Source: Ignavibacteria bacterium (GTDB taxonomy: Bacteria > Bacteroidota > Ignavibacteria > UBA10030 > F1-140-MAGs086). From it: DNA of 64,000 nucleotides. Positions 21,651 to 45,514 of the stretch are shown one piece after another. The notes below the pieces were generated by a model that saw only the letters and a program-made list of their open reading frames with translations, was not told the origin of the DNA and searched no databases. Both the position numbers and the translations under genes were made by a program. Each line of letters begins with the position of its first letter. The stretch's first letter is position 1. The stretch lies in assembly GCA_016873775.1 (NCBI GenBank), contig VGWC01000004.1, forward strand, positions 1,830 to 65,829. The letters run 5' to 3'.

Positions 21651-21795
21651 CAGCAGTTTTTTGTTCCGAAATTGATTGTATCGAAAAATAAATTTGAAAA
21701 AAATACTTAAACTCTTTTTCGCAAACCTATTTGGCATAGAATAAATTCGATTGTTATATTGCACCCGTTTTTGGAACCCGAATTTTTTACCCACT

Positions 21796-22899: not shown

Positions 22900-22907
22900 G
22901 GTGTACA

Positions 22908-23393
22908 ATGAAAATATATGTATCAGTACTATTGTTCTTTGTGTCAACCGATTCATTTTTTTCGCAAGAAAGCAGTACTTCGGAAAAAACGAAGAAGAAA
23001 AAAAACGATACAACATCAACGACAGTAATTCAAGAAAGAAAGAATTCAGAAGAAAACGTTGAAACAAACAAAGAATTGGGAAAGAACGTTACTGTTTCTT
23101 TTTCCAAAGTAATTTTTCCGCTTCTGCAAAAACATTGTATGCCGTGTCATTCGGAAGAAGAGGAAAATCCAAGCGAATTGTATTTTGAATCGTACGAAAT
23201 GCTAATGCATGGCGGGAAAAATGGTGTTCCGATTATTTCGGGCAAAGGAGATTCGAGTATGTTTATACAAAAATTGCGACCGAAACCAACCTTTGGCGAC
23301 CAAATGCCATTGCCAAAACGGAAAACAAAACTTTCAGAAGAAGTGATTCAAATTTTTGTTGATTGGATCAATCAGGGTGCAAAAAAAAATTAA
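22908..23393 (+). CDS. monoheme c-type cytochrome domain protein (PSCyt-like)
   Basis: Signal peptide MKIYVSVLLFFVSTDSFFSQ and a K/T-rich linker, then ...LLQKHCMPCHSEEEENPSELYFESYEMLMHGGKNGVPIISGKGDSSMFIQKL...WINQGA, which resembles the planctomycete-type cytochrome c domain. Overlaps the preceding gene end. Confidence 0.6.
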   Translation: MKIYVSVLLFFVSTDSFFSQESSTSEKTKKKKNDTTSTTVIQERKNSEENVETNKELGKNVTVSFSKVIFPLLQKHCMPCHSEEEENPSELYFESYEMLMHGGKNGVPIISGKGDSSMFIQKLRPKPTFGDQMPLPKRKTKLSEEVIQIFVDWINQGAKKN

Positions 23394-28989: not shown

Positions 28990-29883
28990 TTGCATAAACC
29001 TCACGATTCAAGCAGTAATATTCATACTGTTTTTGTTTTCTTTTTATTTTTTCTCGGCATACTTTCCGTTTCTATTATTGGATTGAAAGGTTGTTCTTAT
29101 TATTTGATTCCGATAGCTGAACGTCCATATCATGCGGATTACGATTTATGGAAACCTACGGGATTCATTGGGCATGGACTAGGTTTTCTTGGAACAGCAA
29201 TGATTATATTGGGTGTTTCTACGTATTCTTCGAGGAAAAGAATTCGTGCGATTTCGTCGTGGGGGAAAATCAGTTACTGGTTAGAGTTTCATATTTTTTT
29301 ATGTCTTGTGGGTCCCATATTCATAGTATATCATACTACATTTAAATTCGGCGGAATTGTTGCAGTAAGTTTTTGGAGTATGACTGCTGTAATGTTAAGT
29401 GGAATTGTCGGAAGATATTTGTATGTGCAAATTCCGAAAAATATTCGCGGAGTAGAAATGACGATAGAGGAATTATTAAACGAAAATTTTATTTTCACGA
29501 AGCGATTGCGAGAAGAGTATAAAATTTCGGAAGAGCTATTCAAACGTATGGAAATCGTTGTTTCGCTTGCGCGCGAAAAATCGCAAACGTTGCTTGGTGT
29601 GTTTGAGGAATTTTTTCTCAAGGGTTCGCAACGAAGAAACGTCCTTCAATTGTTGCAACATGAATTAGTGAAGGCAAACATTTCTACTCACGAAATCAAA
29701 AACATCGTTTCGCTTACGCGCAAGAAAATTATTCTTGAACAGCGGATAGCATTGCTCGAAGGAACGAGAAAATTGTTTCATTATTGGCATGTCATTCATT
29801 TACCGTTCACTATTGTTATGTTCATCATACTCGCAATTCATATTATTGTTGCGTTTCTGTTTGGCTATCGTTGGATTTTTTAA
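28990..29883 (+). CDS. hypothetical polytopic membrane protein
   Basis: Several hydrophobic helices (IIGLKGCSYYLIP, IILGVSTYS, IFLCLVGPIFIVY, VMLSGIVGRYLYV, FTIVMFIILAIHIIVAFLFG). Start uncertain. Confidence 0.4.
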   Translation: MHKPHDSSSNIHTVFVFFLFFLGILSVSIIGLKGCSYYLIPIAERPYHADYDLWKPTGFIGHGLGFLGTAMIILGVSTYSSRKRIRAISSWGKISYWLEFHIFLCLVGPIFIVYHTTFKFGGIVAVSFWSMTAVMLSGIVGRYLYVQIPKNIRGVEMTIEELLNENFIFTKRLREEYKISEELFKRMEIVVSLAREKSQTLLGVFEEFFLKGSQRRNVLQLLQHELVKANISTHEIKNIVSLTRKKIILEQRIALLEGTRKLFHYWHVIHLPFTIVMFIILAIHIIVAFLFGYRWIF

Positions 29884-29925: not shown

Positions 29926-30549
29926 ATGAAAAATAAACCAGTGCTTGTTTATGGAGGCATTATAGTTGTGTTAACGGTAGTAATTATTGTTGCAACTTTG
30001 AAAGAACAAAAACCGATACCGCAACAAATTTCAACTCCGCCGCAAAGCGAACTTCCTTTGAACCATCCGCCAATAGACGGAATGAACAACAATGCTGCGA
30101 AACCATCGAAGGAAAACGTCGCGCGGCGTGTGCAACAGGAAATTGAGAACTTACAACACTCAGTTGAAAAAGAACCAAACAATATTTCACTGTTGATGCA
30201 ACTTGCAAATTTTCTCTTCGATGCGCATCAAATGTCGGAGGCAAAAAAATATTACGAACGTATTTTACAACTCGATGCGAAAAATACGGCGGCACGATTG
30301 GAATTATCGGTTTGTTATTATCACGAACAGAATTTTCAACAAGCAATTTCTTTGATGAAAGAAATATTGTCGTATGAACCGAGAAATCAAGATGCTATGT
30401 ACAATCTCGGTTCGCTTTATGCTACAATGAAAAATGATGCGGAAGCATTAACTTGGTGGAAGCGCACGGTACAAGCAAATGATACATCTGAACTTGCAAA
30501 AAAATCGAAAGAGAATATTTCGTTTCTCGAAAATTCTTTAAAAAAATGA
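29926..30549 (+). CDS. membrane-anchored TPR-repeat protein
   Basis: N-terminal transmembrane helix (VLVYGGIIVVLTVVIIVATL), a P-rich linker, then about 3-4 TPR-like repeats. The stop overlaps the start of the first multiheme cytochrome (ATGA). Confidence 0.6.
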   Translation: MKNKPVLVYGGIIVVLTVVIIVATLKEQKPIPQQISTPPQSELPLNHPPIDGMNNNAAKPSKENVARRVQQEIENLQHSVEKEPNNISLLMQLANFLFDAHQMSEAKKYYERILQLDAKNTAARLELSVCYYHEQNFQQAISLMKEILSYEPRNQDAMYNLGSLYATMKNDAEALTWWKRTVQANDTSELAKKSKENISFLENSLKK

Positions 30550-32186
30550 AGCGACTATTCTATGGTGGAATAGCAGTACTCTTATTTTGCGCGCACGCAT
30601 ATCCGCAAATTTCTCCCGGAAAACTTTCCAGCGCGCACGAATCGCTTGAAGGAATAAACAACTGCACGCAATGTCATAATTTAGGGAAAGAAATTTCCGG
30701 TGAAAAATGCTTGCAGTGCCATAAAGAAATACAACAACGAATCAATGCGCAGCACGGTTTTCATTTCAAAAAAAAAAATGAAGACTGCATTGTTTGTCAC
30801 AAAGACCATCGCGGGAAAGAAGTTTCGTTGCTTCGATGGGACAAAAAGAATTTTTTACACGACGAAACCGGATATGGTTTGGAAGGTAGACATCGCACGC
30901 TTAAGTGTGAACAATGTCATACGAAGAGCAATATTCGCGATGAAGATATTCTGAAAAAAAGCAATGCGTTTATTTCAAAAACGTTTTTGGGTTTGCATCG
31001 AGAATGTTTATCGTGTCACGAAGATGAACATCGCGGGCAATTGAATACCAATTGTTTGCAGTGTCATTCGTATGAGCAATGGAAACCTGCGGAGAAATTT
31101 TCTCATAACGAAGCGCGGTTTTTATTAAAGGGAAAACATGCAAATGTTCGTTGTCAAAAATGTCATACTGCAGAAATAAACGGAAATTTGGTACGATTGA
31201 AAACGTTTAAACCATTACAATTTCAGCAATGTCATTTCTGTCATAATGATGTTCACGGCGGGAAATTAGGCGCAAGTTGTAATTCTTGTCATTCTGAAGA
31301 TGGATGGAAAATTATTGCGGAAGGAAAATTTAATCATTCTAATACGCGGTTCCCGCTTTTAGGAAAACATCAAAATGTTGTTTGCGGCAAATGCCACAAA
31401 GAAAAGAGGGGAGAAAAAAAATTTTCTGATAGAACATTCGCTTTGTGCAGTGATTGTCATTCCGATTATCATCGCGGAGATTTTAAAGAGAGAGCAGATA
31501 AGGGCAAATGTGAAGGTTGTCATACGATTGAAGGATTTTCTCCATCTACGTTTTCAGTAGTTTTGCATAATGAAACAACGTTCAAACTAACAGGAGCGCA
31601 CGAAAAAATACAATGCAATCAGTGTCATAAAAAAGAAAATTCCGGATCGAAAGAAGAGTATATACGTTTTCGTTGGAAAGAATTACGTTGTCAAAGTTGT
31701 CATACTGATATACATAGTGGACAATTTGCAACGCGAATGAAAGACAAAGGGTGTTTGGAATGTCATTTGACAACAAATTGGAAGTCGTTATTGTTTTCTC
31801 ACGATTCAACTGTATTTCCGCTTGTTGGATTACATCAGGCAGTTTCTTGTAAAGAATGTCATAAAATTGTAACTTTGCAAAGCAATTTCAACTACATTCA
31901 GTTTACGGGAACACAGAAGCAATGTAATGAATGCCATACGGATGTTCATTTCGGGCAATTCAAACGTATAGAGAATAATCAAACAAAGTGTGAACAATGC
32001 CATTCTGCTCGAGGTTGGAGTTTTCTACAATTTGAACATAACACACAGTCACAATTTCGACTCGATGGAAAACACGCACAACTATTTTGTGAAGATTGTC
32101 ATAAGAAAACGACGCAAGATGGAAATACATTCACGCGGTACAAACCGTTATCACCTCTTTGCGAATCATGTCATGCAAAAAGATAA
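30546..32186 (+). CDS. multiheme c-type cytochrome, 20 CXXCH motifs (doubled-CXXCH repeat type)
   Basis: Signal/lipoprotein-like N-terminus (MKRLFYGGIAVLLFCAHA). I counted 20 canonical CXXCH motifs. They sit in recurring units of the form F.H......L.G.H.....C..CH, typical of paired-CXXCH cytochromes. Confidence 0.85.
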   Translation: MKRLFYGGIAVLLFCAHAYPQISPGKLSSAHESLEGINNCTQCHNLGKEISGEKCLQCHKEIQQRINAQHGFHFKKKNEDCIVCHKDHRGKEVSLLRWDKKNFLHDETGYGLEGRHRTLKCEQCHTKSNIRDEDILKKSNAFISKTFLGLHRECLSCHEDEHRGQLNTNCLQCHSYEQWKPAEKFSHNEARFLLKGKHANVRCQKCHTAEINGNLVRLKTFKPLQFQQCHFCHNDVHGGKLGASCNSCHSEDGWKIIAEGKFNHSNTRFPLLGKHQNVVCGKCHKEKRGEKKFSDRTFALCSDCHSDYHRGDFKERADKGKCEGCHTIEGFSPSTFSVVLHNETTFKLTGAHEKIQCNQCHKKENSGSKEEYIRFRWKELRCQSCHTDIHSGQFATRMKDKGCLECHLTTNWKSLLFSHDSTVFPLVGLHQAVSCKECHKIVTLQSNFNYIQFTGTQKQCNECHTDVHFGQFKRIENNQTKCEQCHSARGWSFLQFEHNTQSQFRLDGKHAQLFCEDCHKKTTQDGNTFTRYKPLSPLCESCHAKR

Positions 32187-32205
32187 ATAGCGTTTCAGTT
32201 ACAAT

Positions 32206-34161
32206 GTGAAAACACTGCAACAATACATACGAAAAACAATATTTCGAGCATTGGTTGTTTTCGTAGTGAATGCACTTGTAAATATTGAAGAAGTGTATTC
32301 GCAAGAATCACCTCACGGAATACTTTCACTTCCGTGTGCAGATTGCCATTCGACAGATTCGTTTCGTGAATTGCGTAGAGATTTGCAATTCAATCACAGT
32401 GAACGAACAAGATTTCAACTTACTGGTCAACATAAAAATATTCGTTGCCAATCGTGTCATCATTCATTAAAGTTTTCAGAGGAGAAGGGTTCTCTGCAAT
32501 GTGTTTCATGTCATACAGACCAACATCGCGGCGAAGTTGGAAAACAATGTGAACGTTGCCACACTACACAAAGTTGGGTGGTTACGGATATAGTGGAGAA
32601 ACATCAAGCGTCGCGCTTTCCGTTATTAGGAATTCATCGAAGTGTAAGTTGTGTGCAATGTCATACGAATCAGCAAAAGAATGAATTTGTCGGATTACCA
32701 GTAGATTGTGCTGGATGTCATCGAGAGGACTATCAGCGTTCAAAATATCCTTCACACAACGCAGTGGGAATATCGTTCCAATGCGAAGATTGTCATCAAA
32801 TTACTTCATCGAAGTGGAATGTAACAACATTTCTTCATCCCAATATTTCTATTATAAACGAAGGCATTCATTCCACTCTCTCGTGTGAATCATGCCATAA
32901 TAAAAAAACGCTTGGTACTCCGAAAGATTGTTTTGGTTGTCACCAAAATTCGTTTGTGAACGCAGTAAATCCTAATCACGTAACAGGACAATTTTCGCAT
33001 GATTGTAAAGCGTGTCATACTGCGACGCAATGGAAACCTGCAACATTCAATCATATAGGAACACAATTTCCTTTGACGGGTTCTCATCAATCGGTTTTGT
33101 GCGAGCAATGTCATTCGAACGGCAATTATACTTCATTATCAAGCGAGTGTTTTAGTTGTCATGAATCGGATTTTAGCCAAACACAGAATCCCAATCATAT
33201 TGTATCTCAATTTTCACACAACTGCGAAACATGTCATTCTACAAATGGATGGCAGCCGGCAACATTCAATCACGCAACAACGCAGTTTCCATTGAGCGGA
33301 GCGCATCAAACAACGGCGTGTCAAGAATGTCATACCAATGGAAATTATACAAATCTTCCGATGGATTGCTGGAGTTGTCACGAAACAGATTTTTCACAAA
33401 CAACAAATCCCAATCATACGACAGCGCAATTTTCCCACTTGTGCGAATCTTGTCACAATACTGTTGGATGGCAACCGTCAACATTTAACCATACGAATAC
33501 ACAATTTCCATTGACAGGAGCGCACGTTGCTACTCCTTGTCAGCAATGTCATATCAATGGAAATTATACAAATATTCCAACCGACTGTTGGAGTTGTCAT
33601 GAACAGGATTATACGTCTGCAAACGAACCGCCTCATACATTGCCTAATTTTAGTCATACGTGCACTGAATGTCATACAACAGAAACGTGGGACGACGCAT
33701 CGTTCAATCACAGTGTTACTCAATTTCCATTAACAGGTGCGCATATTTCAGCAAGTTGTCAACAATGTCATGTGAACGGAAATTATACAAATGTTCCCAC
33801 AGATTGTTATCCTTGTCATCAAACCGATTTTACTTCCGCTCCTCAACATTCTTCGAAAGGATATCCGCATAATTGTACGACAAGCGCGTGTCATAACACA
33901 TCAAACTGGAATTCTGCATTTAATCATACTCCGGAATTTCCCATAGCGCAAGGAACAAAACACCGTCCCGGAAGATGGAATGTTTGCAGTGATTGTCATC
34001 CTAATGCAAACAATTTTTCAGTATTTACTTGTACAACTTCGTGTCATCCGCAAAATGAAATGAACAATGAACATAATGATGTAAGTGGCTATATTTATCA
34101 AAGTGCCGCATGTTATGATTGTCATCCAACAGGTGAAGAAGGTGTTTTTCAACGCAATTAA
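32206..34161 (+). CDS. multiheme c-type cytochrome, 23 CXXCH plus two non-canonical motifs (CX4CH, CX3CH)
   Basis: Signal peptide. I counted 23 CXXCH motifs, plus CTTSACH and CTTSCH near the C-terminus. The central part is built from tandem approx. 46 aa modules (NGNYTN.P.DCWSCHE.DFSQT.NPNH...QFSH.CE.CH.T.GWQP.TFNH..TQFPLTGAH....CQ.CH). Confidence 0.85.
   Translation: MKTLQQYIRKTIFRALVVFVVNALVNIEEVYSQESPHGILSLPCADCHSTDSFRELRRDLQFNHSERTRFQLTGQHKNIRCQSCHHSLKFSEEKGSLQCVSCHTDQHRGEVGKQCERCHTTQSWVVTDIVEKHQASRFPLLGIHRSVSCVQCHTNQQKNEFVGLPVDCAGCHREDYQRSKYPSHNAVGISFQCEDCHQITSSKWNVTTFLHPNISIINEGIHSTLSCESCHNKKTLGTPKDCFGCHQNSFVNAVNPNHVTGQFSHDCKACHTATQWKPATFNHIGTQFPLTGSHQSVLCEQCHSNGNYTSLSSECFSCHESDFSQTQNPNHIVSQFSHNCETCHSTNGWQPATFNHATTQFPLSGAHQTTACQECHTNGNYTNLPMDCWSCHETDFSQTTNPNHTTAQFSHLCESCHNTVGWQPSTFNHTNTQFPLTGAHVATPCQQCHINGNYTNIPTDCWSCHEQDYTSANEPPHTLPNFSHTCTECHTTETWDDASFNHSVTQFPLTGAHISASCQQCHVNGNYTNVPTDCYPCHQTDFTSAPQHSSKGYPHNCTTSACHNTSNWNSAFNHTPEFPIAQGTKHRPGRWNVCSDCHPNANNFSVFTCTTSCHPQNEMNNEHNDVSGYIYQSAACYDCHPTGEEGVFQRN
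32930..33840 (+). repeat. tandem repeats (about 138 nt / 46 aa modules, 6-7 copies) inside the second multiheme cytochrome gene
   Basis: Nucleotide-level recurrence of ...aattatacaaat...ccgactgttggagttgtcatgaa... and ...caattttc.cac...tgtca... blocks, matching the protein-level double-CXXCH modules. Confidence 0.7.
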
Positions 34162-34168
34162 CATTTTT

Positions 34169-35728
34169 GTGCGTTTAATTTTCCTATTCTTTCTCTTCGC
34201 CTCGTTCACGTTCTCTCAAATTACTACACAGAGTGGAAGTGTTACATACATTTCCTTAGGAAACGTGTATGTATCACGTCCTGAAAATGTGCAATGTAAC
34301 GAAGGTGATACGCTTTTTGTGCTTCGCGATAATTCGACGATTGCACATATTATCATTTCTGTCGCAAGTAGTAAATCTGTTGTCGGAAAATTTTTTCCGG
34401 ATTCAGCGACAATCAAAATCGGTGATACCGTGAGAGGTTTTCAGATGACCACCAAGAGCGTTTCATCGAAAAGACAAAAAGAACGAACCACAAATATTTT
34501 GAGTGAACAAAGAAACAATATTGTTCGTGGAAGAATTGCGTTGCAAAATATAAGTGTGAATAATTTCAATTTGAGCGAACGCTCATTTCATCAATCTGGA
34601 ATAGTTCTGAATTTAAATGTGCAACGTGTTTTCGGTTCACTATGGAATTTTTCGATGTACTTCAACTCGCAGTACATTTCTTCATCGCAAAAATTACGAT
34701 TGGGAAACACATCGCGAACGAGATTTCGATTGTTTGATTTTTCTTTTGATTATCCCAATACGAGCGAAGGATTTGCTTATTCGTTTGGAAGAGTGCGTTC
34801 CAAATATACTGTTGGTCTTGGAGCGTTTGACGGTGCGCAAATTATTTATTCGATGAAAGAATGGACATTTGGTATAGCAGGAGGAACGCAACCGGATTAT
34901 CGCACATCACGCATCGCCACTGAATATGTACGGTTTTCTCCGTTTATTCATTTTCAATCGGGAAACGTTTTCGGTTTTCAATATGATGGAACAGTTGCAT
35001 ACACGCGACAAATGTTCCAACTGCGATTAGATAGAGAATTTCTTTACATGCAAAATTCATTTTCTACTTCGCAGTGGTTTAATTTTTATCATAGCACAGA
35101 AATAGATTTGAACGACATCAAGAACGGTTTGCGGCAGAAGGCGATTCAATTCACGAACACATACATTTCCATCGGAAGTTCGCCGCTTGATTGGCTGTCG
35201 TTGAATGCGGGGTTTGATGCAACGAAAAATGTGTACTTGTTTGAAACGCATCGTTCGCTTGCTGATTCACTTTTTGACCGTTCGTTACAACAAGGATTTC
35301 GAATGAGTATGACAATTCGCTTGCCGAATAATTTTTCGTTGAACGGATTTTCCAATATTCGATTTCGTGAATCGGATGAGCGAACGTCGGTAAATAACGG
35401 CATCGGAATTCGCGCAAACAATATTCTCAATTCGCGTTTCAATGTTGGCGTTCGTAGTTCGCTTTTAAATGGAATTTTTACTGATGCGGCTACTGCAGGA
35501 ATTGATATTCATCGCGAAATTGCCAGCGGAATACAGGCAACAATAAATTTTGAACAGTATTTTTATGAACTGATGAACGGCGGAAATACTAATACGCTCA
35601 CAACAATCGGCGCAAATGTTTCTGGGCAACTTTCTTCAACATTATTTACTATCGCATCTCTCGAAAAAAATTTTGACAAGTTTGCGAACACGATGCGTGT
35701 GTTTTTAGAAATCGGTTATCGCTTTTAA
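34169..35728 (+). CDS. predicted outer-membrane beta-barrel protein (porin-like partner of the cytochromes)
   Basis: The ORF is open from 34085 but overlaps the cytochrome gene. A GTG at 34169 directly after the cytochrome stop gives a signal-like N-terminus (VRLIFLFFLFASFTFSQ). About 520 aa with alternating polar/hydrophobic strands, abundant aromatic girdle residues, and a C-terminal ...LEIGYRF (terminal Phe). Confidence 0.55.
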   Translation: MRLIFLFFLFASFTFSQITTQSGSVTYISLGNVYVSRPENVQCNEGDTLFVLRDNSTIAHIIISVASSKSVVGKFFPDSATIKIGDTVRGFQMTTKSVSSKRQKERTTNILSEQRNNIVRGRIALQNISVNNFNLSERSFHQSGIVLNLNVQRVFGSLWNFSMYFNSQYISSSQKLRLGNTSRTRFRLFDFSFDYPNTSEGFAYSFGRVRSKYTVGLGAFDGAQIIYSMKEWTFGIAGGTQPDYRTSRIATEYVRFSPFIHFQSGNVFGFQYDGTVAYTRQMFQLRLDREFLYMQNSFSTSQWFNFYHSTEIDLNDIKNGLRQKAIQFTNTYISIGSSPLDWLSLNAGFDATKNVYLFETHRSLADSLFDRSLQQGFRMSMTIRLPNNFSLNGFSNIRFRESDERTSVNNGIGIRANNILNSRFNVGVRSSLLNGIFTDAATAGIDIHREIASGIQATINFEQYFYELMNGGNTNTLTTIGANVSGQLSSTLFTIASLEKNFDKFANTMRVFLEIGYRF

Positions 35729-35733
35729 CGTAG

Positions 35734-37041
35734 ATGGAAACACTAATCACGCTGAGTATTTCCGTTCTCATCATCGCTCCCGTAATTTTTTTTTATCTTC
35801 GTTACAAAAAGAAAAAAAACAAAAAATTTAAACATCATTTACAACGGGCGATTGACAGTGGATTGAATGAAGTTGCAACACTTCATCCTTTGATCAATCA
35901 ATCGCTGTGCATTGGTTGCGGAACGTGTGTTGCATCGTGTCCTGAAAATGATGTGTTAGGAATTGTCAACGGAAAAGCCACGGTAATTTACGGCGCAAGA
36001 TGTGTTGGTCACGGATTGTGCGCTCAAAATTGTCCCGTTGGCGGAATCGAATTGGTTCTTGGAAATGCAACAACAAGCGTTGAAGTTCCTCACATCAAAG
36101 ACAACTATGAAACAAACGTGCAGGGAATGTATATCGTTGGAGAATTGGGAGGCGTTGGTTTGATTCGCAATGCAATCAATCAAGGAAGAGAGGTTATTGA
36201 GTACATTTCAACGCAAAAACGTTTGCAACAAAATATTCTCGATGTCGTCATTGTTGGTGCAGGACCTTCGGGATTGAGTGCGTCGCTTTCGGCGTTAAAA
36301 AATAATTTACAATTTGTAACTCTTGAACAAGAAGCGGATTTTGGCGGCTCTATTCTTCATTATCCGAGGAATAAATTAGTGCTGACTTCACCGGTGGAAA
36401 TCCCTTTGTACGGAAAACTGAATCTTTCTGAAATTACAAAAGAAAATTTGCTGCAAATCTGGAATGACATTATTGAAAAAACAAAACTCAAACTTCATTT
36501 CAATGAAAAAGCAACGGAGATAATAAAATCGAACGATGTTTTTTTTGTTCGTACTTCACAAAGCGAGTATCAGACGAAAAATGTTGTGCTTGCATTAGGA
36601 AGAAGAGGAACTCCGCGAAAACTTGGCATACCCGGCGAACAGCATTCCAAAGTAATGTACCGCCTGATTGAAGCGGAATCGTTTCAGCAATCGCATATTC
36701 TCGTTGTCGGCGGCGGAGATAGTGCAATTGAAGCCGCTGTTGGATTGGCACAACAATTGGGAAATACCGTAACGATTTCATACCGCAAAGATACGTTGAC
36801 ACGTTTGAAAGCGCGCAATCAGGCGAACATTCAGAAATATATTTCCGAAAAAAAAATTTCTCTTCTTTTCAATTCGTCTGTTCGGGAAATACACGAAAAA
36901 TGTATTGATATAGATGTAGCGGGAACAATACGTACGTTGCCTAATGATTATGTGTTTGTATTTGCAGGAGGAGAATTGCCGTTTGAGTTCTTAAAAAAAA
37001 TTGGTATTGAAATTGATTTACATAGAGGAGAATCAAAATAA
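35734..37041 (+). CDS. membrane-anchored ferredoxin (2x[4Fe-4S]) fused to an FAD/NAD(P)-binding pyridine-nucleotide-disulfide oxidoreductase-like domain
   Basis: N-terminal transmembrane helix (LITLSISVLIIAPVIFFYL). Two cysteine clusters: CIGCGTCVASCP and CVGHGLCAQNCP. A dinucleotide-binding motif VVIVGAGPSGLSAS and a second ILVVGGGDSAIEAA. Confidence 0.7.
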   Translation: METLITLSISVLIIAPVIFFYLRYKKKKNKKFKHHLQRAIDSGLNEVATLHPLINQSLCIGCGTCVASCPENDVLGIVNGKATVIYGARCVGHGLCAQNCPVGGIELVLGNATTSVEVPHIKDNYETNVQGMYIVGELGGVGLIRNAINQGREVIEYISTQKRLQQNILDVVIVGAGPSGLSASLSALKNNLQFVTLEQEADFGGSILHYPRNKLVLTSPVEIPLYGKLNLSEITKENLLQIWNDIIEKTKLKLHFNEKATEIIKSNDVFFVRTSQSEYQTKNVVLALGRRGTPRKLGIPGEQHSKVMYRLIEAESFQQSHILVVGGGDSAIEAAVGLAQQLGNTVTISYRKDTLTRLKARNQANIQKYISEKKISLLFNSSVREIHEKCIDIDVAGTIRTLPNDYVFVFAGGELPFEFLKKIGIEIDLHRGESK

Positions 37042-37164: not shown

Positions 37165-40100
37165 ATGTTGAAGACTTCTTTCTTTTTAATCATCTTATTC
37201 TTGCTGAACAATTCTTTTATTTCAGCGCAGCAATATTGGAAATGGAAAAACCCGTACCCGCAGGGAAACAGTTTTACCGCAGTATATTTTATCAACGAAG
37301 AAATCGGTTATGGCATTGGAGAATTTGGAGTAATTCTTCGTACGACCAATGGAGGAGCTGAATGGGCGCAACTTTCAAGCGGAACAGTACGAACGTTACG
37401 CGCTGTATATTTTTTCGATTCCGATAATGGTTTTGTTGCCGGAGATTCCGGAACAATTCTTCGTACAACAAACGCCGGCGATTCGTGGACAATGCAGAAC
37501 AGCACGACATTCAATACACTTCGTGGAATTTCTTTTGCAACTTTATCACAAGGATTAATCGTTGGTTCTTCCGGCACGATTGTAAAAACTACTGATGGAG
37601 GAACAACGTGGAATTTGCTTACGAGCGGAATTACGGCAAGGTTGAACTCCGTTGCTTATATCAATGCGGATACTGCAACTGCGGTAGGAACTGCGGGTGG
37701 AGGTGGAGGTACTGGTACTATCATTCGTACAACAAATGGAGGAACAACGTGGGCATTGCAAACCACGATTCTACAAAGTGCGTTGAATGGCGTTGCGTTC
37801 TATAATACGAACATCGGTTTTATTGCTGGCTCGAATAATCGTTTGTTGAGGACCATCAATGGAGGAACAACGTGGATTCGAGATACTGTACAAGGTTCGT
37901 GGAATGCAATTGCAAATATAGATTCTCTTACGTGTGTTGCTGTTGGACAAAATGGAGTAATCGTCAAAACAACGAACGGTTCTACTTGGAATTCGCAGAC
38001 AAGCGGAGTTTCGAATCATTTAACGGGAGTTTCTTTTAAAGGAAATACTATAGGAACTGTAGTCGGTAGTTTAGGAATCGTTATTCGCACGTCAAACGGC
38101 GGTGATTCATGGATACAACAATCGCGCACTGTTACGACTTCGAATTTGTTCGGTGTTTTTTTTGTGAACAGAACAATCGGTTTTGTTGGCGTGAGATCTG
38201 GTGTAATGTTGAAAACAACAAACGGCGGTGATTCGTGGATACAACAATCCTACACCGCTCCCGGAATAGTGAGCTCCGTGTATTTTAATGACGAAAATAT
38301 TGGTACTGCTGTAACCGATTCCGGCGCTATCATTCGTACGAATGATGGAGGAAATACTTGGCTGTTGCAACAAAGCAATACAACTTCAGTTCTGAATTTT
38401 GTACAATTTGTCAATGAAAATACTGGCGTTGTTGTTGGTTCAAACAGTACCATTCTGTTCACAACGAATGGCGGAGAAAACTGGATTCCTTCTGTCACTG
38501 GATTGAATAAAACATTTCGTTGCGCTTCATTTGTTTCAGAAAATCTGTGCATTGTTGTAGGCGATACAGGAACAATCATTCGAACGACCAATAAGGGTGA
38601 AACATGGATGAATCAACACTACAGCACTTCTAATTTTATGCGCGGGGTTCATTTTTCTAACGAACAAAATGGTGTTGTTGTTGGTTCATTTGGAATGATT
38701 ATAAAAACTACGGATGGGGGAACTACCTGGAGTGAACCGAATAGCGGAACTCAAAACACTTTGCGAGCAATTTCTTTTTCTGATGAAGAGAATGGAACTG
38801 CAGTCGGCGAAAACGGTACAATTGTTTCGACAACAAATGGAGGAACTTCGTGGAGTATAATTGCAACTCCAACGATAAACAGATTAAGCGGCATATCAAT
38901 GACATCTGCAGCAACGGGAACAATTGTTGGAAACAATGGAACCATATTACGAACGCAGAGTTCAGTTTTTCCTCCAGATACTCCTTCGTTACTTTCACCC
39001 GAAAACAATGCGACGAATCAATCCATTACTCCTCTTGTAAATTGGAATGCTGTTACAGGAGCAACTTCGTATCGCTTGCAAGTTGCGAAAGATTCCCTCT
39101 TTGCAAATGTAGTAACGGATAAATCGAATATACAAGGAACATTGTTTGAACTCAGTTCACTGAATAGTTTTACAAAGTACTTTTGGCGAGTGAGAGCAAA
39201 AAATAATGAAGGAGTTAGCGAATTTTCCGATACGTGGAATTTTACAACGCGGCAAGTTGCAGTTCCATCTGTTCCTACGTTGATTTCTCCAGAAAACGGT
39301 GCAGTGAATCAGGAAATTACCCTTATCGCAACTTGGAATGCTTCAGATAGTGCAATCGTTTATCGTCTTCAAGTTGCAAAAGATTCACTTTTTGAAACGA
39401 TAGTTGTTGATATTTCTGAAATTGAAAATACTTCAAAAGAAATTGGTCCTCTTTCAAGCAACACAAAATATTTTTGGAGAGTAAGCGCGCAGAATGTCGG
39501 AGGAAGCAGTGAGTTTTCAGAGAAATGGAATTTCACGACAAAATTTATTGCTCCATCAAATGCTCCAACATTAGTTTCTCCCGAAAATAATGCAACGGAA
39601 ATTTCAACAAAAGTTGTTTTGGTTTGGAATTATTCACAAGGTGCAGATAATTACGGTGTTCAAGTTGCAACCGATTCACTGTTTGAAAATTTGATTGTGA
39701 ATGATTCTACAGTAACGGATACGACGAAAAAAGTTACACTTGCTAGTTTAACAACGTATTATTGGAGAGTAGATGCACGAAATGCAGGAGGCAACAGTGC
39801 GTATTCCAATATATGGAGTTTTACAACAGTATTTGTTCCTATTCCATCTGTGCCTGTTTTAATGTATCCACAAAATAATTCCGTACATCAACCTCGTATC
39901 ATTGCGCTTGAATGGGAACCTTCTTTGAATGCAGAAACATACCTTTTGCAAATTGCAACGGATTCGTTGTTTGAAGTAATGGTGCTTGAAGATTCAACGA
40001 TTGTTGAAACAACAAAAGAAGTAGAATTACTTGGCATAACGAAATATTATTGGAGAGTTCGAGCAAAAAATGTCGGCGGAATTAGTAATTTTTCCGATGT

Positions 40101-41595
40101 ATGGAATTTTACTACGATTATTGCTCCGCCAACAGTTCCGCAACTTGTTTCTCCGCAAAACAATGCTACCAATGTTTCGCTTGTAATAAATCTGCGATGG
40201 CGAAAAACAGAACGCACAGAAACGTATCGTCTTCAACTTTCCACCGATTCGCTATTTGAAACATTCGTTGTAGATGATTCCACCCTTGTTGATACTCTGC
40301 GAGAAGTCGGTCCGCTTGCTTATAACACTCGATATTTTTGGAGAGTTAGTGCGAAAAATTTCGGAGGAACAAGCGAGTTTTCAAACGTTCGAAGATTCTC
40401 AACTGTTATTTCTCCTCCTCCTGCACCAACATTACTTACACCGGAAAACGGCGCAACAAATCTTCCGCAATCAATTTTATTTACGTGGAATCTCGTTGGC
40501 GGAACTGGATTTGTTATTTACCATTTGCAACTTTCCATAGATTCGCTTTTTGCAACGTATGTTGTGAACGATTCGAATATTTTTGGAAATACACAGCTAC
40601 AAGTGAATGGTTTGCAAGGTTCGACACAGTATTATTGGCGTGTGAGAGCAAGAAACAATAGTGGTTACGGAGAATTTTCAACTGTTTGGAATTTTTCAAC
40701 CGCAACAATACCACCATTGCCACCAGTACTCTTGTTTCCATTCAACGGTTCGCAAAATATTCCGAGAGAAGTATTAGTACGATGGAGAAGTTCGCTCAAT
40801 GCAGAATTGTATCATTTACAAATTGCGTTGGATACTGCGTTTGAGAATTTTGTTGTCAATGATACAAGTATTGCTGATACGATGAAACTCGTTGGTCCAC
40901 TTCAATTTTTTACAAAACATTATTGGCGTGTTCGAGCAAAAAATAACACTGGATACGGCGATTGGTCGTTGCGAAGGAGTTTTACAACGCTCATTCAGGT
41001 TCCACAGCAAGTAATGTTACTCGCACCTGAACATAATGCCACAATCAGCAGCGATAGTATAATTTTCCGTTGGAATAAAAGTTTTCCAGAAGTTAATCAT
41101 TACGGCATTGTCATCGCGCTCGATACTGCTTTTGCAAATATCGTGTATGCGGATACATCGGTTCTCGATACACAGAAAGTTGTACGCGGGCTTATAAACG
41201 ACCGAAGATATTGGTGGAAAGTCAGCGCGCATAATATTACCGGTTGGGGACAATTTAGCGAGATACGGAAATTTACGCTGTTTATTTCCGGGGTAGCAGA
41301 ACTTGGCGGAATTCCCAAAGTATTTTCTCTTGAACAAAATTATCCAAATCCGTTCAATCCTTCAACGATTATCGAATTTCATTTACCACAACAAGGCTTT
41401 GTTACACTCAATGTATTTGATGTTCTTGGAAACAACATATCAACGCTGCTCCATCAGGAATTTTCGGCAGGAAATTTTGCATACGAATGGAATGCAAGTG
41501 ATGTTCCGAGCGGAATATATTTTTATCGCATAAGTGTTGCACATGAAAATCATTTGCAATATAGCAAGACGAATAAACTTATACTTCTAAAATAA
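37165..41595 (+). CDS. giant secreted protein: BNR/Asp-box beta-propeller region, eight tandem FN3-like domains, T9SS C-terminal sorting domain
   Basis: Signal peptide. About 16 repeats of the form ..G.ILRTTNGG.TW.. (Asp-box-like SxDxGxTW variants, Ycf48/sortilin-like propeller blades). Eight approx. 95 aa repeats (P....L.SPENNATN......W......Y.LQVA.DSLF......S.......L...TKYFWRV.A.N..G.SEFS..WNFTT). C-terminal NYPNPFNPSTIIEFHL...GIYFYRI, a Por secretion tail. Confidence 0.75.
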   Translation: MLKTSFFLIILFLLNNSFISAQQYWKWKNPYPQGNSFTAVYFINEEIGYGIGEFGVILRTTNGGAEWAQLSSGTVRTLRAVYFFDSDNGFVAGDSGTILRTTNAGDSWTMQNSTTFNTLRGISFATLSQGLIVGSSGTIVKTTDGGTTWNLLTSGITARLNSVAYINADTATAVGTAGGGGGTGTIIRTTNGGTTWALQTTILQSALNGVAFYNTNIGFIAGSNNRLLRTINGGTTWIRDTVQGSWNAIANIDSLTCVAVGQNGVIVKTTNGSTWNSQTSGVSNHLTGVSFKGNTIGTVVGSLGIVIRTSNGGDSWIQQSRTVTTSNLFGVFFVNRTIGFVGVRSGVMLKTTNGGDSWIQQSYTAPGIVSSVYFNDENIGTAVTDSGAIIRTNDGGNTWLLQQSNTTSVLNFVQFVNENTGVVVGSNSTILFTTNGGENWIPSVTGLNKTFRCASFVSENLCIVVGDTGTIIRTTNKGETWMNQHYSTSNFMRGVHFSNEQNGVVVGSFGMIIKTTDGGTTWSEPNSGTQNTLRAISFSDEENGTAVGENGTIVSTTNGGTSWSIIATPTINRLSGISMTSAATGTIVGNNGTILRTQSSVFPPDTPSLLSPENNATNQSITPLVNWNAVTGATSYRLQVAKDSLFANVVTDKSNIQGTLFELSSLNSFTKYFWRVRAKNNEGVSEFSDTWNFTTRQVAVPSVPTLISPENGAVNQEITLIATWNASDSAIVYRLQVAKDSLFETIVVDISEIENTSKEIGPLSSNTKYFWRVSAQNVGGSSEFSEKWNFTTKFIAPSNAPTLVSPENNATEISTKVVLVWNYSQGADNYGVQVATDSLFENLIVNDSTVTDTTKKVTLASLTTYYWRVDARNAGGNSAYSNIWSFTTVFVPIPSVPVLMYPQNNSVHQPRIIALEWEPSLNAETYLLQIATDSLFEVMVLEDSTIVETTKEVELLGITKYYWRVRAKNVGGISNFSDVWNFTTIIAPPTVPQLVSPQNNATNVSLVINLRWRKTERTETYRLQLSTDSLFETFVVDDSTLVDTLREVGPLAYNTRYFWRVSAKNFGGTSEFSNVRRFSTVISPPPAPTLLTPENGATNLPQSILFTWNLVGGTGFVIYHLQLSIDSLFATYVVNDSNIFGNTQLQVNGLQGSTQYYWRVRARNNSGYGEFSTVWNFSTATIPPLPPVLLFPFNGSQNIPREVLVRWRSSLNAELYHLQIALDTAFENFVVNDTSIADTMKLVGPLQFFTKHYWRVRAKNNTGYGDWSLRRSFTTLIQVPQQVMLLAPEHNATISSDSIIFRWNKSFPEVNHYGIVIALDTAFANIVYADTSVLDTQKVVRGLINDRRYWWKVSAHNITGWGQFSEIRKFTLFISGVAELGGIPKVFSLEQNYPNPFNPSTIIEFHLPQQGFVTLNVFDVLGNNISTLLHQEFSAGNFAYEWNASDVPSGIYFYRISVAHENHLQYSKTNKLILLK
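38971..41283 (+). repeat. eight tandem approx. 285-290 nt repeats encoding the FN3-like domains of the giant protein
   Basis: Protein-level repeats start at PPDTPSLLSPENNATNQ... and end at ...IRKFTLFIS. Each unit carries the conserved YRLQVA.DSLF and YFWRV.A.N motifs. Confidence 0.7.
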
Positions 41596-41978: not shown

Positions 41979-42986
41979 ATGTTGGTTAAGCAAAACGGAA
42001 ATTCTTCTCTTGGCACAATCGGAGGCGGATGTATGGAAGGAGAAGTTCTATTGCATGCGCAGCGATTGTTCGAAACAAACAAAGCAGAAATTCTAACCTT
42101 TCACTTAAACGAAGATGACATTGAGCATGGTTTGATATGCGGAGGAAGTTTGGATGTATTTCTCGAACCGATTTCGTGCAAACAAATTATTCTTTTCAAA
42201 AAAATTCTTTCAATGCAAAATAATGGAAATGATTGTATCCTTGCAACATTGCTTTCTAACGAAGGGAAAATTATTTTCAAAAACATTGTTCCAAACTCTT
42301 CGGGAAGTAGTAACGTATTGGAGAAATGGAGAAGCGAATTAGCACTATTCAGTGTTCCGACACCGCATTCATTGAAAAAAGAAATTGAAAAAGTATTTCG
42401 TAGAAACGAAACACACAGAATAAAAACAGAAACCGGCGAATGGATTCTTGAGCCGATTCAGGGAACGCCGCAACTAATTATTTTTGGCGGAGGACACGTA
42501 TCAAAATATATTTCAAAAACTGCGGCGATGTGTGGGTTCCATGTTTCCATCATTGATGACAGAGAAAAATTTGCGAACGTTGAGCGATTTCCCGAAGCGA
42601 AAAAAGTATTCACATTAGACTTTGAGAACGGTTTTAAAAAAATTGCAGTTAAAAAATCATCATACATTGTTATCGTAACACGCGGACATCAATACGATGA
42701 AACCGTATTGGAGCAAGCGTTAAAAACGAACGTTTCGTATGTTGGAATGATAGGAAGTAAACGTAAAGTGCTTGTGACGTTCGAGCATTTACTTTCCAAA
42801 GGGATTTCACTTGAACAATTGAAACGTGTTTACTCGCCGATAGGAATTGAAATCGGCGCAACTACAGTAGAAGAAATTGCCGTTAGTGTTGTTGCAGAAT
42901 TAATTCGTGTTCGTAAAGGGAAGCGTTTTCCGCTTCAACATAAATTGCAAATGATGGAAGATACGTTTGTGCATTTACAAAAATAA
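41979..42986 (+). CDS. xdhC: XdhC/CoxI-family molybdenum-enzyme maturation factor (N-terminus probably frameshifted, see findings)
   Basis: Contains ...SSLGTIGGGCMEGEVL... and the Rossmann-like C-terminal domain (LIIFGGGHVSKYISKTAAMCGFHVSIIDDREKFA). The ORF 41872..42096 in another frame encodes what looks like the true N-terminus (MDIVSEIISALESEETIILATIIS). Confidence 0.7.
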   Translation: MLVKQNGNSSLGTIGGGCMEGEVLLHAQRLFETNKAEILTFHLNEDDIEHGLICGGSLDVFLEPISCKQIILFKKILSMQNNGNDCILATLLSNEGKIIFKNIVPNSSGSSNVLEKWRSELALFSVPTPHSLKKEIEKVFRRNETHRIKTETGEWILEPIQGTPQLIIFGGGHVSKYISKTAAMCGFHVSIIDDREKFANVERFPEAKKVFTLDFENGFKKIAVKKSSYIVIVTRGHQYDETVLEQALKTNVSYVGMIGSKRKVLVTFEHLLSKGISLEQLKRVYSPIGIEIGATTVEEIAVSVVAELIRVRKGKRFPLQHKLQMMEDTFVHLQK

Positions 42987-42994
42987 ACCTTGCA

Positions 42995-43600
42995 ATGAAC
43001 GTTGCGGCAATTATTCTTTCTGCAGGAACATCACGACGAATGGGACAACCGAAAGCATTGATGAAATTGAATGGAAAAACATTTCTTCAGCAAATCATAG
43101 ATGTACTTTCCGCAACTTCAATTTCTAATATCACTGTAGTATTGGGAAGTTCTGCTCAACAAATATGCGCATCGCTTGGTGATTTTTGCGGGAAAATAAT
43201 TATCAACGAACATTGGCAGCAAGGTCAACTTAGTTCCGTTATTGCGGGAATTGATTCTCTCGGTGAAAATTTTGTTGATGCGATAATGCTTTGTCCCGTT
43301 GACCATCCGTTGATTTCTGAAAATGTTATACAAGAATTATTGTGTGCATTCGAGACGACGAAGAAAAAAATTATTCTTCCAAAATATTGCGGACGTCGTG
43401 GACATCCTATAATTTTTTCGCGCGATATATTTTCGGAAATAAGAAACGCACCAACAGAAATTGGCGCACGTTCCGTTCTCCACAAATTTCCGAATGAGAT
43501 TTGCGAAGTTCAGACAAACGAAGAATGTGTACTAGCCAACATTGATACAAGAGAAGATTACGAAAAGTATATTGCAAACACACACAATGCTGAATTTTGA
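42995..43600 (+). CDS. mocA: MobA-like NTP transferase (molybdenum cofactor cytidylyl/guanylyl-transferase, MocA-type)
   Basis: MNVAAIILSAGTSRRMGQPKALMKLNGKTFLQ is the MobA-like NTP-transferase N-terminal motif. 201 aa. Confidence 0.7.
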   Translation: MNVAAIILSAGTSRRMGQPKALMKLNGKTFLQQIIDVLSATSISNITVVLGSSAQQICASLGDFCGKIIINEHWQQGQLSSVIAGIDSLGENFVDAIMLCPVDHPLISENVIQELLCAFETTKKKIILPKYCGRRGHPIIFSRDIFSEIRNAPTEIGARSVLHKFPNEICEVQTNEECVLANIDTREDYEKYIANTHNAEF

Positions 43601-44789: not shown

Positions 44790-45034
44790 TTACTGTAAAA
44801 GTAAAATTGTTTGCGATGATTCGCGACTTGTTCTGTGCAGATGAAATGCAATTTTCCATCGAAGAAAAAACATCAGTGGAAAAAATTTTGGAACTATTGA
44901 GTGAAAAAAATAATCGTATTGAAGAATGGAAACCATTTCTCCGAATTGCAGTGAATTGTGAATACGTTACTTTTGATTGTTTGTTACGCAATAACGATGA
45001 AGTTGCAATTATTCCCCCCGTGAGCGGTGGATAA
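44786..45034 (+). CDS. moaD: molybdopterin synthase sulfur-carrier subunit (MoaD/ThiS fold)
   Basis: 82 aa from MITVKVKLFAMIRDLF... ending ...IIPPVSGG* (C-terminal Gly-Gly). The ATG overlaps the moeA stop (ATGA). Confidence 0.75.
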   Translation: MITVKVKLFAMIRDLFCADEMQFSIEEKTSVEKILELLSEKNNRIEEWKPFLRIAVNCEYVTFDCLLRNNDEVAIIPPVSGG

Positions 45035-45039
45035 GTATA

Positions 45040-45465
45040 TTGAAGATTGTAGCGATGATAGAAATTGTTGAAAGAAAAATTGATGTGCACGCCGTTATCA
45101 GAAGTGTAGAAGATGATTCAGCAGGAGCGATTGATGTATTTATCGGCTCAACGCGAAATATTTCCGATGGGAAAAATGTGTTGTTTCTGGAATATGAAGC
45201 ATACGTTTCGATGGCGAAAAAAATGATGGAAGAAATTTCCGCCGCAATATTTGCGAAGTGGGATGTAAAAAAAATATCTCTTGTTCATCGCATCGGAAAA
45301 GTGCCGATTGGTGATGCAAGTGTTGTACTCGCCGTTTCTTCTGCGCATCGGAGCGAAGCATTTGAAGCATGCAGGTACGCAATTGATATGTTGAAAAAAA
45401 ATGTTCCGATTTGGAAAAAAGAGTTTTTTGACAACGGTGAAATTTGGGTGGATGGAAATAATTAG
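45040..45465 (+). CDS. moaE: molybdopterin synthase catalytic subunit
   Basis: 141 aa with ...GAIDVFIGSTRN...HRIGKVPIGDASVVLAVSSAHR..., matching the MoaE family. Confidence 0.8.
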   Translation: MKIVAMIEIVERKIDVHAVIRSVEDDSAGAIDVFIGSTRNISDGKNVLFLEYEAYVSMAKKMMEEISAAIFAKWDVKKISLVHRIGKVPIGDASVVLAVSSAHRSEAFEACRYAIDMLKKNVPIWKKEFFDNGEIWVDGNN

Positions 45466-45514
45466 AACAGAATAATTTGAACGTGGTAGTTAAAGATAAC
45501 AATAGGTAATTATT

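Follow-up and report, generated by a model that had tools for sequence, protein, structure and literature searches.

Which electron route is encoded by a compact cluster of cytochrome, barrel and flavoprotein genes in an Ignavibacteria bacterium, and does that route lead out of the cell? The cluster lies in a 64,000-nucleotide stretch of contig VGWC01000004.1, which belongs to a metagenome-assembled genome (MAG) of this bacterium; the whole stretch is called the window here, and coordinates given without a locus label are positions within it. A first-pass annotation had described five packed genes with about 45 hemes and had proposed an undescribed system for extracellular electron transfer (EET). 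The present analysis extends the cluster to a module of six genes that is found again in many Ignavibacteriota and Bacteroidota, and that probably encodes a conduit for electrons across the cell envelope. From its sequence, the module fits best as a variant, in Bacteroidota and Ignavibacteriota, of the predicted porin-cytochrome cluster class PCC3; the likeness is one of parts and motifs, with the inner-membrane protein also linked by sequence to proteobacterial membrane proteins of the same kind.

Six open reading frames (ORFs) follow one another on the + strand between positions 28990 and 37041, separated by tiny gaps. The first gene, g0 (28990-29883), encodes an inner-membrane protein (IMP) of 297 residues with five transmembrane (TM) helices and putative sites for two b hemes. 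It is followed by g1 (29926-30549), encoding a 207-residue protein with an N-terminal TM anchor and three predicted periplasmic tetratricopeptide repeats (TPR), and by the genes of two c-type cytochromes: g2 (30546-32186; 546 residues, K/E-rich, with a signal peptide and 20 hemes) and g3 (32206-34161; 651 residues, T/S/N-rich, with 23 CxxCH motifs, one CxxxCH and one Cx4CH). The fifth gene, g4, ends at 35728 and starts either at a GTG (34169) or at an ATG (34115), giving a product of about 520-537 residues that is modelled as an outer-membrane barrel. The last gene, g5 (35734-37041), encodes 435 residues comprising a TM anchor, a two-cluster ferredoxin domain and an FAD/NAD(P) domain resembling those of TrxR and YpdA. 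The reading frames of g1 and g2 overlap in an ATGA (30546-30549), and the gaps amount to 19 nt between g2 and g3, 8 nt between g3 and g4 and 5 nt between g4 and g5; with the ATG start, the g3/g4 junction becomes an overlap of 47 nt. In the existing annotation, with locus tags running from FJ218_01110, these genes are given no more than the names 'hypothetical', 'cytochrome C' and '4Fe-4S dicluster domain-containing protein'. The five co-directional genes of the first-pass annotation, g1 to g5, are all present on the + strand where it had placed them, and the ATGA overlap of its first two genes is genuine. Its boundary of the unit did not hold, as the gene directly upstream, g0, belongs to the module as well.

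That the six genes work together is argued by their recurrence in other genomes. A scan of one genome per GTDB species, queried with an alignment of g0, found relatives of g0 in at least 533 species genomes. The best 80 loci were annotated with our own ORF caller, hidden Markov models (HMMs) of g0 and g4, phmmer searches with g1 and g5, and counts of CxxCH motifs; all counts out of 48 refer to those of the 80 loci with at least 7.5 kb of sequence downstream of g0. A g0-type gene is the first gene of the module at all 80 loci. The Fe-S flavoprotein accompanies it in 46 of the 48, multiheme cytochromes in 45 and the barrel in 42, with all three together in 41, while a TPR gene of the g1 type is found in 27. 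Of the other seven loci, three have no downstream gene calls, and in four the flanking sequence ends within or shortly behind a very large cytochrome or barrel gene. The gene order of the window, with the IMP, the optional TPR protein, the 20-heme cytochrome, the variable cytochrome, the barrel and the flavoprotein in succession, is found in 15 loci, and in 26 loci the flavoprotein instead precedes the cytochromes and the barrel.

Contigs approached from the barrel lead to the same set. Where homologues of g4 with 25-51% identity were located, multiheme cytochrome genes lie directly upstream of the barrel gene in all four contigs and both g0-like and g5-like genes are present in three of them; contigs reached through homologues of g0 carry the same gene set. 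The reading frames of barrel and cytochrome often overlap or nearly abut. The arrangement is far beyond what chance would produce, given that the set recurs in 41 of 48 loci. The one observation on the side of a chance neighbourhood of genes that do not work together is the absence of detectable signals for a transcription unit: consensus scans for promoters and terminators gave fewer sites than in shuffled sequence, and hence no support for operon boundaries. The retention of the set across Ignavibacteriota, Bacteroidia, Cytophagia and a plasmid refutes that explanation, whose probability we regard as negligible.

The carriers include MAGs of Ignavibacteriales and Melioribacteraceae and, among the Prolixibacteraceae, MAGs of Labilibaculum, Draconibacterium and Mariniphaga together with the cultured Maribellus luteus XSD2. 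In a Kryptoniota MAG only the g0 relative was found, on a flank too short to hold the rest. The module also occurs on plasmid pEMTOL02 of the cultured Emticicia oligotrophica DSM 17448, where it lies behind a ccsA cytochrome-biogenesis gene.

The bulk of the predicted cofactors is contributed by the two cytochromes. The g2 protein contains exactly 20 CxxCH motifs at 27 residues per heme and has Pfam matches to the Cytochrome_C7/c3 families, and the 25 motifs of g3 are spaced at 28 residues per heme in a protein with 10.4% threonine and 9.5% serine. With 44 histidines in g2 and 56 in g3, both would therefore have enough for bis-histidine ligation. Within g3, five tandem units of 73 residues carry three hemes each. 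At the DNA level, Tandem Repeats Finder reports the same period at 33154-33603 on the + strand (219 bp, 2.1 copies, 75% matches, score 499). This 219-bp unit is the step by which the g3 cytochrome expands and contracts: the hemes in the g3 position sum to between 10 and 72 across loci, and most of these sums fall on the series 10+3n. The two atypical motifs of g3 are likely to be real heme sites, since a total of 25 equals 10+15 and fits the series of the homologues. The pair then reaches 45 hemes, in agreement with the count in the first-pass annotation. A series of this kind would amount to a simple repeat mechanism that tunes the length of a molecular wire in steps of three hemes. Single cytochromes in the g3 position of loci L043 and L067 contain 69 and 70 CxxCH motifs in 1748 and 1702 residues, respectively; they are among the most heme-rich proteins we have met and are consistent with repeat expansion.

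The first cytochrome of the module varies far less: its CxxCH count is exactly 20 at 39 of 45 loci, and in 76 of 78 cases it is an orthologue of g2; the later cytochromes are orthologues of g3 in 87 of 89. The conserved g2 is predicted to be the cytochrome that spans the periplasm, and g3, of variable length, is predicted by analogy to be extracellular or to thread the barrel. In the structure of the Mtr complex, 20 hemes span roughly 185 Å. On that scale the 20 hemes of g2 could bridge most of the periplasm, and the 25 or more hemes of g3-type proteins could extend well past the outer membrane. A sequence search of the PDB returned no solved relative of g3, and for g2 only a marginal match to NrfB (E 0.0035).

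The g4 protein has no match in Pfam (E<=0.1) or NCBIfam. An AlphaFold model built on 27 homologues, with a mean pLDDT of 79.3, shows a signal peptide, a six-stranded N-terminal domain (approximately residues 20-93) and 22 long antiparallel strands, and the C-terminal end of the protein (...GYRF) is typical of outer-membrane proteins. The first-pass annotation had taken the 34169-35728 product to be an outer-membrane beta-barrel on its sequence, and had made this, together with the presence of barrel genes beside homologous cytochromes in other genomes, the point on which its proposal turned. The modelled 22-stranded barrel bears out the former, and for the latter, homologous barrel genes adjoin the cytochrome genes in essentially every related locus. 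The barrel family is large: a full HMM search gave 2650 representatives at 50% clustering, 1033 of them with E <1e-30. An initial impression of a rare family, based on a word-indexed search that gave only 27 proteins, was discarded as a limit of that search's sensitivity.

The link between cytoplasm and periplasm is more likely to be provided by g0. No Pfam or NCBIfam model matches this protein, and the Pfam search detected no similarity to Ferric_reduct (PF01794); its family comprises 5717 matches, nearly all of them unnamed proteins of Ignavibacteria or 'Bacteroidota' MAGs. In an alignment of 34 homologues, invariant residues are H101 and H115 in TM3, S137, G138 and G141 in TM4, and W266, H270 and H284 in TM5, and position 97, at which TM3 opens its motif, is W or F. 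The protein can be summarized by the motifs W97-x3-H101-x13-H115, S137-G138-x2-G141 and W266-x3-H270-x13-H284. Pairs of histidines 13 residues apart on each of two helices are a classical arrangement for holding a stack of two b hemes across a membrane, and the sequence of g0 predicts a di-heme-b membrane protein of the type referred to as IMP in PCC3. Five hydrophobic helices are separated by loops of which the second and the fourth (132 residues, helical) are rich in K/R. These loops are predicted to be cytoplasmic because of this charge, which would place H101 and H270 near the inner face and H115 and H284 near the outer face of the membrane. The first-pass annotation had seen a redox entry point at the cytoplasmic membrane; such a point is present, with g0, rather than g5 alone, as the likely step that crosses the membrane.

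The g5 protein is the predicted entry point for NAD(P)H. Its Pfam matches are to Pyr_redox_3 (E 8e-43) and, above cut-off, to Fer4_21 and Fer4_10. The cluster-binding motifs are C59xxC62xxC65xxxC69P and C90xxH93xxC96xxxC100P. Of the first-pass description as a membrane-anchored 2x[4Fe-4S] ferredoxin fused to an FAD/NAD(P) oxidoreductase, the anchor, a ferredoxin-type two-cluster domain and the flavin domain stand. The first motif of g5 is complete, and the second carries a histidine in place of a cysteine. H93 is a histidine in 71 of 71 homologues, while the second cysteine of the first motif (C62) is Cys in 21, Ser in 44, Thr in four and Val in two of them. The closest solved structures are YpdA/Bdr (7a7b, E 1e-30) and ferredoxin-NADP reductases of the TrxR type, but the scores stay below the equivalog cut-offs for YpdA (TIGR04018, 170 vs 340 bits) and for TRX_reduct (87 vs 343). 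In the comparison of the 71 homologues, the flavin domain contains no CxxC and no conserved cysteine, the conserved cysteines being confined to the Fe-S ligands. On this ground g5 is not a disulfide reductase, which leaves electron transfer from FAD to the clusters as the obvious chemistry. Judged by these comparisons, g5 shares a fold class with YpdA and TrxR, and not membership in the bacillithiol-disulfide reductases of the YpdA type.

A TM anchor is found in 70 of the 71 homologues of g5, with on average 5.6 K/R in the 15 residues after it against 0.3 before it. By the positive-inside rule, this cluster of charges puts the Fe-S and flavin domains in the cytoplasm. Proteins of this type are loaded with cofactors and g5 has no Tat motif, which fits the same placement. 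The g1 protein, for which the first-pass description as a membrane-anchored TPR protein proved accurate, has a single TM helix at residues 6-24 and a match to TPR_19 (E 7e-18). A weak match to the TPR domain of CcmH/CycH (28 bits) lies under the cut-off of 42. From its periplasmic orientation and this sub-threshold resemblance a role in maturation can be guessed, and g1 is regarded as an accessory protein and a possible chaperone of apocytochromes.

How does this set of parts compare with known systems? PCC3 is a porin-cytochrome cluster predicted in Alpha-, Beta- and Gammaproteobacteria (He et al. 2017, PMC5566968; Hoover et al. 2023, PMC10734462). Its 'extracellular' cytochrome has a median of 34 and up to 85 hemes and is built of repeats, rich in T/S/A/G and very low in residues per heme; its periplasmic cytochrome has a median of 21 hemes; and its IMP of about 300 residues has five TM helices, with SGXXG on TM4 and WX3HX13H on TM3 and TM5, and has been compared with the ferric-reductase/NADPH oxidase (NOX) domain (He et al. 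2017, PMC5566968). Later work on Gallionellaceae gives 21-27 hemes for the periplasmic and 10-35 for the extracellular cytochrome. The module of the window agrees with this description in having a barrel gene adjoining multiheme cytochrome genes, a conserved cytochrome with 20 hemes against about 21, a variable, repeat-built and T/S-rich cytochrome with 28 residues per heme and 10-72 hemes across loci, and a g0 of 297 residues with five TM helices, the SGxxG motif and two W-x3-H-x13-H motifs. Since this parts list had already been predicted for Proteobacteria (He et al. 2017, PMC5566968), the proposal that the system is undescribed goes too far.

The differences are nevertheless considerable. 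The barrel has 22 strands in about 520 residues, whereas many porins of PCC3 lie far above 26 predicted strands and reach 42. The published gene order is extracellular cytochrome, porin, periplasmic cytochrome and IMP, whereas here the IMP comes first and the porin follows the cytochromes. The hosts are Ignavibacteriota and Bacteroidota instead of Proteobacteria, a TPR gene is a frequent extra, and a membrane-anchored Fe-S/FAD-NAD(P) protein, absent from the description of PCC3, is almost obligate. The novelty of this module thus lies in its host phyla, its smaller barrel, its gene order and an almost obligate cytoplasmic flavoprotein of the NAD(P) type, and it is the first PCC3-type variant defined in Ignavibacteriota and Bacteroidota. 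No description of it in Ignavibacteria or Bacteroidota was found among the papers searched. A porin-cytochrome (Pcc) cluster has been reported for Ignavibacterium album, with an OmbB-like porin and a 400-residue cytochrome of 14 hemes, and represents a different architecture (Shi et al.), and unnamed 'novel PCC types' have been mentioned without detail for Bacteroidetes MAGs (He et al. 2019).

The first-pass annotation had likened the layout to MtrCAB and OmaB-OmbB-OmcB while regarding the components as unrelated in size and heme number, and both halves of this comparison are supported. With respect to MtrCAB, g4 matches no Pfam family (including MtrB_PioB, if that model is in the Pfam copy used), and g2 scores 61 bits against a cut-off of 192 for TIGR03508 (DmsE/MtrA) and 18 against 209 for TIGR03507 (OmcA/MtrC). 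The heme counts are 20 + 25, compared to 10+10 in MtrCAB and 8+12 in the Pcc complexes of Geobacter; on these counts, and with no lipobox at the N-terminus of either g2 or g3, the module is also set apart from OmaB-OmbB-OmcB. A further difference concerns the electron source: quinol, via CymA, ImcH or CbcL, supplies these known EET systems, while the present module carries its own predicted cytoplasmic dehydrogenase. The PCC4 and porin-less clusters of multiheme cytochromes, IMP and redox proteins resemble it in placing an IMP with the same signature beside periplasmic multiheme cytochromes and an Fe-S/redox protein; PCC4 differs in having three small periplasmic cytochromes, none of them extracellular, and redox partners with other domains (He et al. 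2017).

A different parallel is offered by the NOX/ferric reductase (FRE) proteins and the MsrQ-Fre pair, in which two b hemes are stacked on two helices with histidine pairs 13 residues apart, a cytoplasmic module feeds electrons from FAD and NAD(P)H, and delivery is outward. The helices with the two histidine pairs, the cytoplasmic FAD/NAD(P)H module and the delivery to the outer face are all predicted for g0 and g5. However, g0 has five helices and not six, its dehydrogenase is a separate TrxR-like Fe-S protein and not a fused FNR-like domain, and the acceptor would be a chain of multiheme cytochromes and not O2, an Fe(III) chelate or MsrP. In the flavin-based EET of Listeria (Ndh2-DMK-EetA/B-PplA), electrons pass via demethylmenaquinone (DMK) and flavinylated lipoproteins through a Gram-positive envelope. 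This system has no protein in common with the module and is similar in providing a dedicated NAD(P)H-oxidising entry to an extracellular sink, for redox balance without proton pumping.

A path can be proposed along which g5, at the inner face of the cytoplasmic membrane, would oxidise NAD(P)H at its FAD and pass electrons to its two Fe-S clusters, one of them histidine-ligated. From there, g0 would conduct them from an inner to an outer heme b across the membrane, in the manner of the TM domain of NADPH oxidases and ferric reductases, the 20-heme rod of g2 would carry them through the periplasm, and g3 with its 25 hemes, together with the 22-strand barrel of g4, would take them across the outer membrane to an acceptor outside the cell. 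Candidate acceptors are Fe(III)/Mn(IV) minerals, humic substances or the surface of a partner cell, and g1 would be an optional periplasmic TPR helper, possibly in the maturation of these very large cytochromes. The sequences show which genes and motifs are present, how well the module is conserved, the modelled barrel fold and the predicted topology; the binding of cofactors, the contacts among the proteins, the position of g3 on the surface, the flow direction and the acceptor are inferred from these. We consider this complete path from NAD(P)H to the outside slightly better supported than its negation. Since electrons would leave from the cytoplasmic side and the module has no proton-pumping part, it would serve as an electron sink for redox balancing or as an extracellular reductase, and not as a coupling site. 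Flow would be outward, because in this direction electrons move to a lower energy and are helped by the membrane potential, while both forces would oppose an inward flow to NAD(P)+. On the same thermodynamic and membrane-potential reasoning, electron uptake that reduces NAD(P)+, which the first-pass annotation had entertained, is not taken as the main mode. Heterotrophs that are, like these, largely fermentative or facultative would benefit from the regeneration of NAD(P)+.

A bolder reading goes one step further and holds that this route is a quinone-independent form of EET. A NOX-like di-heme-b protein, supplied by a membrane-tethered NAD(P)H:Fe-S flavoprotein, would pass electrons directly to a wire of 45 (up to approximately 90) hemes across both membranes; the system would be widespread and vertically conserved in Ignavibacteriota and Bacteroidota and built on a smaller core of reductase, IMP and 7-heme cytochrome. 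It is put forward tentatively, as a proposal that we would not rate at even chances. The notion of a smaller core comes from plasmids of Proteobacteria. When plasmids were searched by tblastn with g0, Alteromonas, Methylophaga, Sphingobium, Roseomonas and Variovorax were among the genera with weak but significant relatives; the lowest E was 4e-8, for an alignment covering 81% of g0. These IMPs keep the four histidines, the SGxxGRY segment and a C-terminal FG(Y/L)RW. In all five plasmids examined (L090, 4974-9693; L091, 3073-6850; L092, 2980-6767; L093, 2958-5648; L094, 6073-9747) the IMP gene directly follows that of a 'ferredoxin reductase / 2Fe-2S' protein of about 610-690 residues, which in Roseomonas is split into two adjacent genes. 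In four of five it directly precedes a 7-heme cytochrome c3, with a DUF1622 gene next in two; the Roseomonas stretch has no annotated cytochrome gene. The N-terminal ~215 residues of g2 are homologous to the 7-heme c3 of the same plasmids (tblastn, E about 1e-9 to 2e-9). No barrel and no large cytochromes accompany these triads, which resemble the porin-less group of He et al. (2017), appear to be uncharacterised, and may represent the evolutionary core of the large module.

Several points weigh against the proposed path from NAD(P)H to the outside, and two rival readings draw on them. The first concerns the electron donor. Proteins with two b hemes often carry quinone sites, and g0 could accordingly be a quinol oxidase or quinone reductase at the base of the same wire, with electrons flowing outward or, in the oxidation of Fe(II), minerals or a cathode, inward; g5 would then be ancillary, serving for example to maintain the system in the reduced state or to supply a side reaction. 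An exchange of electrons with quinones has been proposed for the IMPs of PCC3 and PCC4 on the model of cytochrome b in bc1 and hydrogenase (He et al. 2017, PMC5566968). Many Fe(II) oxidisers moreover carry PCC3, and iron-oxidising cells of Sideroxydans CL21 showed upregulation of the IMP gene. The later Gallionellaceae work calls the PCC3 complex functionally unverified. An ancillary g5 agrees poorly with the presence of the flavoprotein in nearly all loci, its gene directly following g0, or separated from it by the TPR gene alone, in 26 of 41, and inward flow to NAD(P)+ would have to proceed against both redox and membrane potential. The plasmid triads bear on this point most directly. The Alteromonas reductase, the only one scanned, contains FAD_binding_6, NAD_binding_1 and Fer2 domains and is not homologous to g5. 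A non-orthologous but functionally equivalent NAD(P)H:Fe-S module thus replaces g5 on the cytoplasmic side of a homologous IMP that has a related cytochrome on its periplasmic side. This would be hard to explain if the IMP served quinones only, and suggests that it takes electrons from a cytoplasmic dehydrogenase, either in place of the quinone pool or in addition to it. This replacement is the best available argument for such a donor and supports a NOX-like, quinone-independent entry, and we consider a quinone-linked wire unlikely, if still worth keeping in view.

The second rival concerns the destination of the electrons, and the same plasmids speak partly in its favour. Most of the triads lie inside copper/heavy-metal resistance islands, and that of Alteromonas stands beside [NiFe] hydrogenase genes; sets of this porin-less kind were judged unlikely to be EET systems (He et al. 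2017, PMC5566968). In the large module itself, g3 lacks a T9SS (type IX secretion system) C-terminal domain, and a Sec signal is the only export signal recognised in it, which leaves its surface exposure to be argued from analogy. The occurrence of the module on a plasmid of E. oligotrophica, which we take to be an aerobe, is a poor fit to a purely anaerobic respiratory role. There might accordingly be no surface wire at all, but a reductase or electron store in the periplasm and outer membrane that acts on metal ions, oxidants, oxidised sulfur or organic compounds for detoxification or iron acquisition, the barrel being a channel for the soluble substrate. The strict linkage of barrel and cytochrome genes stands against this, as does the size of the g3-type proteins: with up to 70 hemes at approximately 9 Å per heme (our own estimate) they would reach far beyond the width of the periplasm, for which a soluble substrate offers no obvious use. 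Furthermore, the T/S/N-rich composition of g3 is like that of the predicted extracellular cytochromes of PCC3. A periplasmic function of this kind is therefore rated as rather improbable, and an exit of electrons through the outer membrane is preferred.

Sediments, aquifers, wastewater and bioelectrochemical biofilms all harbour abundant Ignavibacteriota and anaerobic or facultative Bacteroidota, whose role in the redox cycling of iron, manganese and humic substances has mostly been guessed from generic counts of multiheme cytochromes. The six-gene module provides diagnostic motifs for this purpose, with g0 relatives in at least 533 species genomes and a barrel family of 2650 clusters, and its function can be approached by genetics and biochemistry since M. 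luteus XSD2 and E. oligotrophica DSM 17448 are cultured carriers. The PCC3 hypothesis for its part gains a candidate cytoplasmic electron donor for the conserved IMP. If the quinone-independent reading is correct, the module would be an entry into EET that bypasses the quinone pool, unlike CymA, ImcH, CbcL or Ndh2/DMK, and a fermentation-linked electron sink for abundant heterotrophs of sediment, soil and wastewater. This would change both the scoring of genomes for EET and models of the energetics of fermentative 'electron dumping'.

In other genomes the module has neighbours that the window lacks. A fused ResB/CcsA protein of the system II pathway for cytochrome c biogenesis is encoded directly upstream in some of them (L002, 1-2677; L089, 4198-7284), which suggests a dedicated supply for heme attachment; none is adjacent to the module in the window. 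A second shared set flanks the module on the Emticicia plasmid (L089, 1-3826) and in an uncultured 4.2-Mb genome (L007, 2466-7670), and is likewise absent from the window. It consists of an ECF sigma factor, an outer-membrane barrel, a Rieske 2Fe-2S protein, a protein of about 260-300 residues and YceI. The 260-300-residue protein is annotated as a DUF5777 beta-barrel in Emticicia, and its 258-residue counterpart in L007 has no Pfam match.

The neighbours of the module in the window are unrelated housekeeping and surface-protein genes, with a seryl-tRNA synthetase and a WD40 protein upstream. Directly downstream, as the first-pass annotation had noted, follows a gene for a giant protein exported by the T9SS (37165-41595, + strand; 1476 residues), with Ycf48/BNR-like beta-propeller repeats, Ig/fn3 domains and a T9SS C-terminal sorting domain. 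Its position is confirmed, and it is not a conserved neighbour: neither this protein nor the WD40 protein accompanies the module beyond the closest relative, so that both were rejected as members, and the giant protein is probably unrelated to it. Further downstream on the + strand, 41979-46429 holds genes for molybdenum-cofactor synthesis (XdhC-like, MobA-like, MoeA and a MoaC-MogA fusion), although the window shows no gene for a molybdoenzyme.

Separate from the module, and about 6 kb upstream of it, a pair of genes for small c-type cytochromes (21751-23393, + strand) comprises a 382-residue ORF with no family match and, after an overlap of 10 nt, a 167-residue PSCyt1 (Planctomycete cytochrome c) protein. 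Two adenylate/guanylate cyclase fusions are encoded on the - strand at 19071-20777 and 6875-9025, one with an nSTAND2 NTPase and the other with a CHASE2 sensor domain. The same strand encodes, at 11150-14431, a lamin-tail protein of 1093 residues with two PLD-like domains and a T9SS sorting domain, which is likely a secreted nuclease or an enzyme of the phospholipase-D type.

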